NCBI GenBank assembly: GCA_963664325.2
Contig: CAXXDQ010000004.1
Location: 256,001-320,000 of the forward strand
From: Desulfomonilia bacterium
GTDB taxonomy: Bacteria > Desulfobacterota > Desulfomonilia > UBA1062
DNA length: 64,000 nt
Direction of reading: 5' to 3'
A program made the translations under genes and the position numbers. Within the stretch, counting starts at the first letter, position 1. Each line of letters opens with the position of its first letter. The notes under the pieces are model-generated. The model was not told the origin of the DNA. It did no database searches and saw only the letters and a list, made by a program, of their open reading frames with translations. Below, piece after piece: positions 1,484 through 9,207 of this stretch.

Positions 1484-2488
1484 TTACTTTAAATACTGCA
1501 TTTCTTTCGCAAGTGTAACAGCCAGTTTGCTTGGATCATCTTTACTATAAATCACTATTCTCAGATGGCGTAAATCAAAAGGGATGTTATTGATATCTTG
1601 AGCCAGCATGATTACTTGTTTTCCATAAGCATGGGCTATACCAAGTTCATAATAGACATTTGGATTTTTTTGAGTCAATTCCACTACAACAATATTTGCT
1701 TTAAGAAGATTCTCCCTTATTCTATTCATTATGCCGCCAGTAAAAATTTCCTCATCCACACGAACGCATCTCTTGGACATGCTCTCAGTCGCAAACTTAA
1801 TGCCTTTTTCATAAACCTCTGTAAATTGATCTGAGAATGGCATGATAACAAACACCAAGTCTTTCTCAACTTGTGGTTTTCCTTTATCTAAGCGCACGAG
1901 GGTTTCTGTTCCAGGGATCGGATATAATGTTTCTTCATCGTAATCTACACGCAAATAAAAAGCATCTATATCATCAAATGAAAAGGATGCATTGTATGCT
2001 CCTATTGACATTGGCTTGGTTCCTCCGGTCAGATCGATAGCCATTTGCCTTTGGGAAAGCCCTTCTCCTGCACTTATCTCTTCTACCCATTCAACGATTT
2101 TTTCTTCCATCAATTTTTGATCTTCACTCTGAATGATCATTTCCCGAATTTTTACATTCAGATTAACTTTCCGAATACACTCCTTAATTTGAGTTAAATG
2201 CATTCGATGAAAATGTTTTGATATCTCACTGAAAGCCAATGTAAGATAATCAGGTTTAAAAAGGCCTGCCATTATAACAACGTTTTCCATTGAAAATCCC
2301 ACTGGTATAAATAGAGCTGGATATTTCGGGCGGCCTCCTTGATCAAGCTCTATTCCGTGATCATGAGCTCGTTTGGAAACCACGCTAAGCGATTTATTGT
2401 AAATCTCGTCAAAATAAAACTTAGGGTCGTAATTCTTCTTTTTCCAAATATCAAAAAGACCTTTGAAAATCTTGTAATCATATTCCAT
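1484..2488 (-). CDS. CARF-domain effector fused to a C-terminal nucleoside 2-deoxyribosyltransferase (NDT)/TIR-like N-glycosidase domain
   Basis: CARF motif I FIPVGFS (aa 60-66), motif II IDLTGGTKPMS (aa 151-161) and PIPGTE. The C-terminal domain (aa ~211-334) has VFVIMPF, RVDE, NPNVYYELGIAHA and IPFDLRH. Confidence 0.85.
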   Translation of the reverse strand: MEYDYKIFKGLFDIWKKKNYDPKFYFDEIYNKSLSVVSKRAHDHGIELDQGGRPKYPALFIPVGFSMENVVIMAGLFKPDYLTLAFSEISKHFHRMHLTQIKECIRKVNLNVKIREMIIQSEDQKLMEEKIVEWVEEISAGEGLSQRQMAIDLTGGTKPMSIGAYNASFSFDDIDAFYLRVDYDEETLYPIPGTETLVRLDKGKPQVEKDLVFVIMPFSDQFTEVYEKGIKFATESMSKRCVRVDEEIFTGGIMNRIRENLLKANIVVVELTQKNPNVYYELGIAHAYGKQVIMLAQDINNIPFDLRHLRIVIYSKDDPSKLAVTLAKEMQYLK

Positions 2489-2500
2489 TTCTCTCCCCTT

Positions 2501-3391
2501 TTATGCAAATGTTGATATCTTTTCTTTAAGGACTACTGCAAAATCTTCACCTTTCACTTTGTTATTCTTCATTTCCTTCAAGTCATCTATATCTACTATT
2601 AGTATCAGCCTTGCCTCCGTTCCTATTTGTCTGTAGAATATTTTTCTAAGTAATTCCCAAATGGGATCGTTTTTCCCGGGCATAGTCCTGCAAATCAATA
2701 GAGTGAGCGGCACGTTTGACAACACTGTATCCTGAAAGTACAAAGTATATTTGAAGCATTGCATAAGATCATTAGTAACAGGTTTCTTGTTTTTGCACTC
2801 TACAATCAGTCTGTTGAACTTGTAGCCAACTCGTATAGCTGGTTCAAATTGATCCCGTAATCTTTCTCTTATTTGATAACAGCCATCTAATTTTAAGTTT
2901 CGACTTCTCCATTGAGGAGGATCAATCCGAATCAATTCTTCTTGAAATAAACAATCAAAAAAATAGATCACATAACTTTCAAATATTTTGCCATCTTCGC
3001 GATGTCCCAAAGGGGCAGTTTTGACTTTATCAAATGCATCCTCTACTTGTTGATTCACAAAACCACATGCAAGATCAAAATCATAAAGAATACTATCTAC
3101 TTTTTTTTGTATTCGTTGGAACAATTGCTTAGTTTTCTCAGGGTTCAATGTGAATCTTTGTATAAGGACTTCAACTTCTGCCATTTTATTATTTAATCGT
3201 TCAGTAGTAATTTTAAAGTTTTTAAAACAAGACATTGCACTAATAGGTTCTTTCAACATACTTCGATATTGTTCTACAGCTTTTGAACAACCACATTCTT
3301 CCAGACTCTCTCGAAAGATGTTTATTAGTTCAATTTCATGCTGATTTAAATCAGCTAAATACCTTTCTATGAAAACATCATTAGCTTCCAT
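2501..3391 (-). CDS. PD-(D/E)XK (Mrr/restriction-endonuclease-like) nuclease with an N-terminal helical domain
   Basis: GKIFE (E138), LKLDG (D169), IVECKN (E198/K200) and QCFKY (QxxxY) occur in the canonical order. Confidence 0.7.
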   Translation of the reverse strand: MEANDVFIERYLADLNQHEIELINIFRESLEECGCSKAVEQYRSMLKEPISAMSCFKNFKITTERLNNKMAEVEVLIQRFTLNPEKTKQLFQRIQKKVDSILYDFDLACGFVNQQVEDAFDKVKTAPLGHREDGKIFESYVIYFFDCLFQEELIRIDPPQWRSRNLKLDGCYQIRERLRDQFEPAIRVGYKFNRLIVECKNKKPVTNDLMQCFKYTLYFQDTVLSNVPLTLLICRTMPGKNDPIWELLRKIFYRQIGTEARLILIVDIDDLKEMKNNKVKGEDFAVVLKEKISTFA

Positions 3392-8120: not shown

Positions 8121-8205
8121 ACGAAATAATCCTCCTCAGATTATCACCAGTTTTTTTTAAAATATGTTTTTTACATATGGATTACGAACATTCTTCTTAT
8201 TAAAA

Positions 8206-9207
8206 CTATGCACTTATTATCACCTCCTGACATTTATAAAGCTGTATCCTCACTACATACTGCCCCATCCCAAACACCGTGCCTTTGCCGATGTGCAGGA
8301 TTTCGCCCGCCTTGAGCAGTGGCATGAATGGCTCGATTTCTCCCTCGAATGTGATGCCGCCCACGAAACCGCCCATGTTGATCTTTTGTTCCTGCCTGCC
8401 CGAATAGCGCTCCCAGTCATAATGCCGGATGCGTCTGGCTATGGTCCTAACGTTACCAGCCTTTTCGATGATCTTTTTATAATCATATTCCTGCCGCTCC
8501 TGTGCGTTTCCGTGAAAATAGGACAGCAGCGACATCCTGCGTAAAAGATTCCTGATGATAATATGAAACTCGACGTTTTCGGTGAGACGGCCGTTGTATG
8601 AAATCCGCGTAGGGGTCTTGAAATCGAGCTTCACCTGCGACGTAATGCAAGGCCCGCCCTCGAATAACACCGGGCCCAAAGGCAGCACGTCTTTTCCTGT
8701 ATCCGAGAGAACCCCGGTTTCGGCTGAATAGAGAGTCTGGCCCGCCGAGTTTGTATTGCCGTCAAGTTCCAGGCTATTGACTTTTTTCAGTGTGAAATGT
8801 CCGCGACCCTTGCCCAGCCCGGTCCTGCCCATTTCGTCAAACGTATGGATGAAATAGGGGAGGTAATCAACAGCCCTTCCAATAAGCGTAAGGCCGAAAG
8901 CTATCTCATCGCCGGGTTTGTAGCCCCTTCTGGATTCCGCTGGAGGTTCGATGACAAAGGGATGCGGCGCGGCTTCGTATTTTCTCATGACCTTCGTATC
9001 AGGCGGGGGAGGGGTTTCAAAGATATAGGAATATACGCATCTGCTTTTCAGGAGGCATTCCGCACATTCCTTATCCCTGACAATGCATACGACACGCCGA
9101 AAAACCGAGCCGAAAGCCCCTCGAAGAGTGGAGCCCTTGAACGACGGCAGAATGATAGGGTCCACCGCCTCAAGAACAAATTCATATTTCCCGACATCGA
9201 TATTCAT
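8206..9207 (-). CDS. cas6: CRISPR pre-crRNA processing endoribonuclease Cas6
   Basis: GSTLRGAFG, Cys cluster CIVRDKECAECLLKSRCVY, PHPFVIEPP and C-terminal HIGKGTVFGMGQY glycine loop. Start is uncertain (ORF open to 9264). Confidence 0.92.
   Translation of the reverse strand: MNIDVGKYEFVLEAVDPIILPSFKGSTLRGAFGSVFRRVVCIVRDKECAECLLKSRCVYSYIFETPPPPDTKVMRKYEAAPHPFVIEPPAESRRGYKPGDEIAFGLTLIGRAVDYLPYFIHTFDEMGRTGLGKGRGHFTLKKVNSLELDGNTNSAGQTLYSAETGVLSDTGKDVLPLGPVLFEGGPCITSQVKLDFKTPTRISYNGRLTENVEFHIIIRNLLRRMSLLSYFHGNAQERQEYDYKKIIEKAGNVRTIARRIRHYDWERYSGRQEQKINMGGFVGGITFEGEIEPFMPLLKAGEILHIGKGTVFGMGQYVVRIQLYKCQEVIISA

Follow-up and report, generated by a model that had tools for sequence, protein, structure and literature searches.

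A CRISPR-Cas locus of subtype III-A without csm5 is encoded in a 64,000-nucleotide (nt) stretch of the genome of a Desulfomonilia bacterium (GenBank assembly GCA_963664325.2, contig CAXXDQ010000004.1, positions 256,001 to 320,000; this whole stretch is called the window below). Its cas6, cas10, csm2, csm3 and csm4 genes are followed by two further genes, one for a 296-amino-acid (aa) protein with a predicted FokI-like nuclease domain and one for a protein that joins a CARF domain to a domain resembling nucleoside 2-deoxyribosyltransferases (NDTs). The same arrangement is shared by a well-supported clade of III-A loci. The reading we prefer, with moderate confidence, is that the locus is a functional-looking member of this distinct, horizontally spread clade and that the 296-aa nuclease is an accessory effector. 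An earlier reading of the window, made by a model from the letters alone (the sequence-only reading), had proposed a III-A system lacking both Csm5 and the HD motif of Cas10 and equipped with two non-canonical effector genes; the clade and the locus counts described below support this proposal and speak against recent decay.

Results and discussion

The locus and its genome lack csm5

On the minus strand of the window, positions 1484-9264 are occupied by seven tightly packed open reading frames (ORFs), followed by a leader and a CRISPR array (Table 1), as the sequence-only reading had described. Cas6 and four of the five III-A effector subunits (Csm1, Csm2, Csm3 and Csm4) score above curated cut-offs. 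The intergenic gaps from cas6 through the CARF gene are 85, -35 (an overlap), 20, 7, 18 and 12 bp; since none exceeds 85 bp, there is no room for a further gene, and the operon is indeed contiguous and without space for csm5. The real start of cas6 is probably at 9207, because the PADLOC Cas6 alignment (E 7e-111) begins at residue 21 of the longer frame; the protein also matches PF10040 (E 1.9e-21).

Csm5 is regarded as a core subunit of III-A complexes. It is reported to cap the 3' end of the CRISPR RNA (crRNA) and to be needed for crRNA maturation (PMC5389561). The window belongs to a 4.31-Mb genome in 9 contigs that is 95.58% complete, and three profiles were used to look for Csm5 in the rest of it, a check that the sequence-only reading had called for. 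TIGR01899, run over the whole genome in six frames, gave a single 18.5-bit match inside csm3, below its 38.3-bit cut-off; the same search was positive in 5 of 14 control genomes. The broader PF03787 matched csm3, csm4 and cas6 and no further RAMP anywhere in the genome. A custom hidden Markov model (HMM), made from 52 Csm5 proteins of related loci and compared with 26,398 six-frame ORFs of the genome, had csm3 as its sole match (E 1.7e-4). The 20 kb upstream of the window contain array 1 and housekeeping genes, and no csm5. The earlier reading had allowed for a cognate csm5 just outside the window or in its relatives; it was looked for in both places and found in neither. The possibility that the 296-aa protein is itself a divergent Csm5 was rejected, as it matches no RAMP or Csm5 profile and is predicted to consist of a helical bundle and a restriction-endonuclease fold.

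The arrangement recurs in one clade of III-A loci

In a search with Csm4, proteins P0002-P0055 match at 40-67% identity, after which identity drops to 34% or less; they form a sharply separated group. An alignment of this Csm4 group was used to scan 185,579 species genomes, which yielded 8 close loci (L003-L010, 39-51% identity) and 72 canonical III-A loci. The close loci carry labels that include Thermodesulfovibrionales, Nitrospirae, Deltaproteobacteria, Desulfobacteraceae, Planctomycetes and Spirochaetales, and at least five phylum labels are represented among these eight loci, whose architecture is conserved. All eight contain cas10-csm2-csm3-csm4, and cas6 is present in the 6 whose contig extends upstream of cas10. 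A homologue of the 296-aa protein follows csm4 in 7 of the 8 (the contig of L009 stops 29 bp past csm4) and the CARF gene comes next in 6 (the contig of L008 stops within the gene for the 296-aa homologue). The full order, from cas6 to the CARF gene, is found in 6 of the 8 loci, the other two being cut by contig ends. With the custom HMM, 65 of the 72 canonical loci were found to encode Csm5 directly after csm4, the 7 others having at most 114 bp of contig left; it was found in none of the 8 close loci.

A metagenome scan yielded 36 ingroup loci (L083-L117 and L140), three of which are the same contigs as L003, L004 and L008. Where at least 300 bp are available past csm4, the 296-aa homologue is present in 30 of 31 ingroup loci and Csm5 in 0 of 31; where at least 1900 bp are available, the genes for both the 296-aa and the CARF protein are present (18/18). 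Among the metagenome loci outside the ingroup, Csm5 follows csm4 in 40 of 44, and the other 4 have no more than 230 bp of room. One locus, L118, was left out of the ingroup counts: the tree groups it with Csm5-bearing loci, and it has 59 bp past csm4.

The Csm4 tree was computed from 146 distinct rows with IQ-TREE in quick mode. All 35 distinct ingroup rows form one clade, with a value of 99 in the Shimodaira-Hasegawa-like approximate likelihood ratio test (SH-aLRT), and this clade is nested in a 54-row group (SH-aLRT 99), the rest of which bear Csm5. The clade is thereby placed within the III-A radiation. The comparison of neighbourhoods suggested by the sequence-only reading shows that the architecture does recur, in 8 genome and 36 metagenome loci that are monophyletic in Csm4. 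Because a single supported clade has the same architecture in genome and metagenome loci, and because every sister locus with room has csm5, the Csm5-less state is a stable, inherited and horizontally spread trait and not a result of decay.

On the level of whole genomes, TIGR01899 has no match above its cut-off in 7 of the 8 close genomes and matches 9 of 10 canonical genomes. The remaining close genome, G006, encodes a Csm5 above the cut-off that is ascribed to a second system, because it lies on a different contig beside another Cas7-like match. This case, together with the incompleteness of the window's own genome, is what can be said for the idea that Csm5 is present and was missed, either as a protein too divergent to recognise, or in the unassembled 4%, or as one supplied in trans by another type III locus. 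We consider this very unlikely: searches of the genome with three profiles yield no additional RAMP, all but one of the ingroup genomes are without Csm5 above the cut-off, and the trait maps to one well-supported clade, each sister locus with room having csm5 in cis.

Still smaller, and close to negligible, is the probability that the locus is a decaying, non-functional remnant of canonical III-A. Such a remnant would agree with the missing cas1 (there is no PF01867 match anywhere in the genome) and the orphaned cas2, with an array split by duplication, and with the foreign base composition of the operon, in which cas10 through the CARF gene have a GC content of 0.33-0.41 against about 0.5 for the genome. 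On the other hand, all seven genes are intact, their catalytic motifs are conserved, the arrays hold 37 spacers, and conservation of the architecture across at least five phylum labels requires purifying selection.

The 296-aa protein is a predicted FokI-like nuclease

The AlphaFold2 (AF2) model of the protein encoded in the csm5 slot has a predicted local distance difference test score (pLDDT) of 87.1 and a predicted template modelling score (pTM) of 0.85. It consists of four long helices (residues 1-124) and an alpha/beta domain (about 115-296). A VIA structure search with residues 115-296 retrieved the small subunit of R.BspD6I (2p14_A; Z 11.9, root mean square deviation (rmsd) 3.2, 149 aligned residues), the catalytic domain of N.BspD6I (2ewf, Z 11.3), the FokI cleavage domain (2fok, Z 11.2) and NucC (Z 8.6). 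Residues D169, E198 and K200, invariant in 14 sequences, constitute the D...ExK triad of PD-(D/E)xK nucleases. Foldseek returned no match to the model at E<=0.001, and sequence searches against the PDB gave noise only; the leads from the ESM Atlas point to Mrr_cat-type clusters (score 0.90 at most). As modelled, the protein is a FokI-like nuclease module carried by a clade-specific helical adaptor, and not a RAMP.

With residues 1-118 of the adaptor, VIA found only generic helical bundles of Z 10.5 or less, below the noise mark of about 13 for helical folds, and Cas11 was not among the best 50 matches listed, although the fold may still be Cas11-like. Homology to Cas11/Csm2 was tried and rejected, since hhalign against the Csm2 of the clade gave a probability of 0.2%. 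Residues 1-125 contain hardly any conserved columns. Across the 8 genome loci, the 296-aa protein is 26-38% identical to that of the window, compared with 37-47% for Cas10 and 56-65% for Csm3, and is the fastest-evolving protein of the operon.

A word-indexed search found 6 close homologues. When 1.84 billion representatives were searched with a profile, 37 matched at E<=1e-10, which is about the size of the clade, and the weaker matches cover the C-terminal half only. Ten of the latter, from among proteins P0163-P0186, were scanned for other domains: five have a confident different N-terminal domain (Macro, proteasome-like, Mrr_cat in two cases, and ResIII helicase), a sixth has a weak, sub-threshold match to a response regulator, and four have no Pfam domain. 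This distribution suggests that the nuclease domain is a portable module with wider use in other defence systems. A candidate fusion of the 296-aa homologue to Csm4 (P0141, 431 aa) was discarded, as its additional helical sequence has no similarity to Csm4.

The nuclease gene has been lost or damaged repeatedly. L098 has no copy, and there the CARF gene overlaps csm4; L091/L092 retain only a helical remnant of 102 aa; in L097, a 325-aa transposase-like ORF (2441-3418, minus strand) divides the gene into pieces of 219 aa and 97 aa; and L117 has a frameshifted version. The CARF-NDT gene is intact in L098, L091 and L097. Given that 4 lineages have a missing or defective nuclease gene next to an undamaged CARF gene, we favour an accessory effector over a structural substitute for Csm5, and regard the former role as fairly probable.

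In the opposite case, which we hold to be possible though doubtful, the 296-aa protein would be a subunit of the complex in the place of Csm5. Its helical bundle would dock on the last Csm3 or on Csm2 at the crRNA 3' end and tether a PD-(D/E)xK nuclease there, either for the DNA cleavage that was lost with HD or for trimming of the crRNA 3' end. The gene occupies precisely the position of csm5 in 30 of 31 metagenome loci and in all 7 genome loci that have room; the family has about 37 full-length representatives, matching the size of the clade, and is not shuffled elsewhere; in L004, L006 and L007 it shares overlapping start and stop codons with csm4; and the helical domain alone is kept in L091/L092. 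There is also a precedent, as a nuclease of the same superfamily is described as fused to the small subunit in variant I-E3 (PMC12669027). Against this stand the loss, truncation or disruption of the gene in 4 lineages that keep all other genes, its fast evolution with an N-terminal part nearly devoid of conserved columns, the lack of a RAMP fold or of similarity between the helical domain and Csm2, and the occurrence of the nuclease module elsewhere behind unrelated domains, in the manner of a free effector. Prediction of a complex between the 296-aa protein and Csm3 and Csm2 scored 0.00 in two runs that were made without controls, and speaks neither for nor against binding. The combined picture, in which the nuclease has replaced Csm5 in the complex and a cyclic oligoadenylate (cOA)-activated CARF-NDT protein forms a second, metabolite-depleting arm, is likewise one to which we give only modest credence. 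If true, this clade would be the first among type III systems to have a PD-(D/E)xK nuclease that is RNA-guided and tethered to the complex, the HD DNase and the Cas7 cap having been traded for one protein.

The CARF protein carries an NDT-like domain

The CARF domain of the last protein of the operon (AF2 model, pLDDT 89.4) extends over residues 45-204, approximately, and matches PF23400 with 27.7 bits (cut-off 24.6). Its structural neighbours are TtCsm6 (Z 17.4), Cam1 (Z 15.1) and Can2 (Z 15.1); the Cam1 profile matches with E 1.7e-8, and a DxTGGTK stretch is invariant. The structure lists hold entries of TtCsm6, Cam1 and Can2 bound to cyclic tetra-adenylate (cA4). Since the domain is closest to TtCsm6 and Cam1, for which there are such entries, the messenger is most likely cA4.

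Structural comparison of the C-terminal domain (residues 205-334) places MilB, an N-glycosidase of cytidine monophosphate (CMP), first (Z 14.8, rmsd 2.3, 123 aligned residues); it is accompanied by NDTs (Z 13.7 and 13.5), Rcl/DNPH1 (Z 12.3) and many TIR domains, which with Z 12-14 are tied with the NDT family and include the TIR domain of Cat1 (Z 12.0, rmsd 2.0, 111 aligned residues). In sequence comparisons the DNPH1 profile matches with E 0.0014, and a YELG motif aligns with YELG of DNPH1. The Glu of this motif (E281), which we take to be the nucleophile position of the NDT/DNPH1 family, is invariant in 36 sequences. The PADLOC TIR effector model also matches (E 1.9e-6); Cat1 gave no sequence-level match in PDB searches with the CARF protein, and the ESM Atlas leads are NDT clusters (score 0.88). 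Judged by its sequence, the domain sides with DNPH1/NDT rather than with the TIR domain of Cat1. The label "CARF-NDT" given by the sequence-only reading can be kept, with the DNPH1 profile match, the MilB and NDT folds and the YELG motif in its support. Motif and modelled fold make it likely that the chemistry is a cOA-activated N-glycosidic cleavage of a nucleotide or of nicotinamide adenine dinucleotide (NAD+).

About 80 full-length clusters of the CARF protein were retrieved, and any name they bear is "hypothetical protein". The NDT-like domain occurs also in fusions to DUF4062, sigma-54-type AAA+ and TIR domains (P0355-P0393), which suggests a portable module that is used more widely in other defence systems.

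TIR domains can make signalling nucleotides. It is conceivable, though we think it unlikely, that the nuclease is controlled by the CARF-NDT protein, either in a hetero-complex that shares the CARF sensor or through a small-molecule product in a Thoeris-like cascade. Both genes occur together in each of the 18 loci with room and are adjacent or overlapping; Pfam, NCBIfam, PADLOC and VIA comparisons reveal no recognisable nucleotide sensor within the nuclease, and the CARF protein ends in a domain of TIR-like fold. However, CARF-NDT persists alone after loss of the nuclease (L098, L091, L097) and so works without it, and for the helical bundle of the nuclease no known ligand sensor stands out from noise, the highest Z falling short of the mark given above.

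Cas10 without HD and a long Csm3

Invariant features of Cas10 among 9 orthologues are the GGDD motif (G541, G542, D543 and D544), two Cys clusters and the first Palm motif; the first 130 residues contain no invariant His or Asp. The Csm1 model TIGR02578 aligns to the Cas10 of the window only from model position 92 of 753. All 26 near-full-length ingroup Cas10 proteins have GGDD. A crude regular expression for the HD motif (HD.GK, searched in the first 120 residues) matches 0 of 26 ingroup and 55 of 78 outgroup Cas10 proteins. By these sequence criteria Cas10 lacks the HD motif and its cyclase motif is intact, in agreement with the cas10 without HD of the sequence-only reading.

Loss of HD coupled to gain of the nuclease was considered and rejected. 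The Csm5-bearing loci nearest to the clade are also without HD.GK, at the level of this expression: L120, L126, L031, L012, L157 and L026, and further L020, L073, L075, L128, L130 and L135. Because sister lineages without the motif still keep Csm5, it seems that HD was lost first and that the loss of Csm5 and the gain of the two genes came afterwards.

Residue D40 of Csm3, presumably the position that is catalytic in characterised Csm3 proteins, is conserved in at least 90%, and for this reason cleavage of target RNA by Csm3 is probably retained. The sequence-only reading had seen here a signalling-only complex, in which an enlarged Csm3 might compensate for Csm5. Neither idea is supported: D40 is conserved and a nuclease gene is present in the operon, and the features that make Csm3 long (insertions at the Cys cluster, a C-terminal tail) are real and are the same in Csm3 of the Csm5-bearing loci L031, L016 and L023. 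As they occur alongside Csm5, a clade-specific compensation by the enlarged Csm3 was rejected. The alternative of the same reading, that the nuclease might make up for Csm5, is weakened by the damage to its gene in 4 lineages with an otherwise complete operon.

A possible mode of action

We propose, with the 296-aa nuclease as an accessory, that Cas10, Csm4, a single type of Cas7 (Csm3) and Csm2 are the only subunits of the effector complex, and that Cas6 cuts its crRNAs. Either nothing or the last Csm3 and Csm2 would cap the crRNA 3' end, and host nucleases would trim it. Upon binding of the crRNA-guided complex to a phage transcript, the Palm domains of Cas10 would make cOA, most likely cA4. 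This messenger would bind the CARF domain of the 334-aa protein and switch on its N-glycosidase domain, which would cleave nucleotides or NAD+ and arrest the cell, and Csm3 would cut the target RNA and thereby time the signal. The 296-aa nuclease would most likely act as a second, dispensable effector that degrades nucleic acid.

Several observations weigh against this proposal. The nuclease and CARF-NDT are confined to this clade, without being exchanged among type III systems, which is unusual for accessory effectors and would also fit a core subunit; in several loci the csm4, nuclease and CARF genes touch or overlap, as would be compatible with a complex; and in L091/L092 the helical part has outlived the nuclease domain, which hints at a role of its own. 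The messenger is proposed from the similarity of the CARF domain only. For the C-terminal domain, PF05014 (NDT) scores 19.9 bits, under its gathering cut-off of 28.8, and in structure it is tied between NDT and TIR, so that more than one substrate is possible. Metagenome-assembled genomes are incomplete, so the absence of Csm5 at the genome level is weaker for them. Finally, without cas1 the arrays cannot be renewed by the system on its own, and this host could be in the course of losing it.

Arrays, cas2 and neighbouring genes

The locus is served by two tandem arrays of 29 and 10 repeats, which result from a duplication and each have their own leader (Table 1). Array 1 spans about C4:253786-256027 (L002:17786-20000 plus window 1-27), with 28 copies in L002:17786-19952; altogether 39 repeat cores lie in C4:253600-257500, of which 10 belong to array 2. 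Window positions 1-144 are 88% identical to 1260-1403, so that a repeat plus about 100 nt of leader was duplicated. Read along the minus (coding) strand, the repeat of array 2 has the 3' end ATTGAGAC, which we assume to fit the 8-nt 5' tag made by Cas6. The spacers are 35-46 nt long; none targets the genome itself, in which only chance matches of 16-17 nt were found. Arrays of ingroup loci occupy the same place and have the 3' half of the repeat in common, and split arrays are seen also in the relatives L003 and L006. The cas2 gene between the arrays, and the larger array beyond the window start, had been missed by the sequence-only reading.

Table 1. Genes and repeat features of the III-A locus (window positions)
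Feature	Position	Strand	Remarks
Leader-proximal repeat of array 1	1-27	-	29th repeat; array runs past window start
Duplicated leader copy serving array 1	28-220	-	family D2
cas2, orphan	221-499	-	92 aa; PF09827 E 3.5e-24; between both arrays
CRISPR array 2	546-1286	-	10 repeats of 37 nt
Leader of array 2	1287-1483	-	197 nt, AT-rich, GC 0.31
CARF + NDT/DNPH1/MilB-like protein	1484-2488	-	334 aa; PF23400 match
Clade-specific 296-aa protein, csm5 gene slot	2501-3391	-	no Pfam, NCBIfam or PADLOC family
csm4 (Cas5 family)	3410-4360	-	316 aa; TIGR01903 234.3 bits, cut-off 55
csm3 (sole Cas7 of locus)	4368-5255	-	295 aa; TIGR02582 166.5 bits, cut-off 90
csm2 (Cas11)	5276-5761	-	161 aa; TIGR01870 61.4 bits, cut-off 30.6
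cas10/csm1	5727-8120	-	797 aa; TIGR02578 385.7 bits, cut-off 170
cas6	8206-9264	-	likely true start 9207

In the related locus L006, cas1 (333 aa) and cas2 lie immediately after the CARF gene. This position, the orphan cas2 and the 88% duplication together suggest that cas1 was replaced here by the duplicated leader and array. The cas6 gene (8206-9207) has a host-like GC content of 0.51; in view of the low values from cas10 to the CARF gene, this suggests a more recent exchange of the operon's effector part than of cas6.

Directly upstream of cas6, on the same strand, a staphylococcal-nuclease (SNase) homologue with a hydrophobic N-terminus is encoded at 9412-9906 (PF00565 E 3.9e-25; PADLOC C3a212 'SNc+LTD' E 2.7e-19), adjoined at 9903-11072 (minus strand) by the gene of a 389-aa protein with a weak alpha/beta-hydrolase motif. 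These two were rejected as parts of the system, as BLASTP found no homologues in any related locus and their GC content is host-like. Other defence-type genes are interspersed in the relatives: a SMODS nucleotidyltransferase and a DUF6602 protein between the arrays of L003 (L003:13540-15039), and, between cas6 and cas10, a DUF559 endonuclease-like protein in L003 (L003:5648-6022) and a 528-aa AAA_35/PDDEXK_9 protein in L006 (L006:4281-5867).

Comparison with known systems

No paper was found that describes a III-A clade without Csm5, the nuclease family or the CARF-NDT effector, although the supplementary tables and Zenodo files of PMC12669027 or the 2020 CARF catalogue may list these loci or the CARF-NDT fusion. 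Two uncharacterised proteins are fixed in the clade, which is of interest to specialists in type III systems rather than a new category. That a whole clade is without Csm5 shows that a Cas10-Csm4-Csm3-Csm2 complex is viable in nature, and provides structural and engineering studies with a minimal Csm complex of natural origin. The control of a FokI-like nuclease without recognisable sensor is directly testable.

The canonical III-A systems of Staphylococcus epidermidis and Streptococcus thermophilus have the same Cas6 and Csm1-Csm4 in the same gene order, and the GGDD motif, the Asp at the catalytic position of Csm3 and a downstream CARF effector are likewise shared. In contrast to them, the locus described here has no Csm5 and no HD motif, and a CARF-NDT-like protein and a FokI-like nuclease take the place of Csm6/Csx1.

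A single kind of Cas7 is also characteristic of subtype III-F. Such a backbone, without a distinct capping Cas7, is shared with III-H, which is modelled with 7 Cas7, 1 Cas5 and 1 Cas10 (PMC12669027). [quoted passage not shown] The present situation is the reverse: the cyclase motif is intact, HD is absent, a CARF effector is present, and Csm4 nests inside III-A. A further reduced III-A clade, III-A2, likewise combines cOA signalling with a nuclease of restriction-endonuclease fold, NucC (PMC12669027). It is described there as lacking Cas11, whereas Csm2 is present here, and the nuclease of our clade is nearer to FokI and BspD6I (Z 11-12) than to NucC (Z 8.6) and has an additional helical domain.

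A close parallel to the second effector is Cat1, a CARF-TIR NADase (PMC12162218), in which CARF is fused in the same way to an N-glycosidase-type domain of TIR/NDT fold. The domain found here differs in being nearer to DNPH1/Rcl and NDT by sequence and in having the YELG motif, and its substrate may be nucleotides rather than NAD+. If it proves to be a cOA-activated nucleotide or NAD+ glycosidase, CARF-NDT would bring a new chemistry to the effectors, alongside those of Cad1, Cat1 and the CARF-HAD phosphatases. The nuclease, finally, shares with the cleavage domain of FokI and the small subunit of R.BspD6I the predicted fold of residues 115-296 (Z 11.2-11.9) and the D...ExK triad; unlike these enzymes, it has a four-helix bundle instead of a DNA-recognition domain, and its gene is situated in a type III operon.

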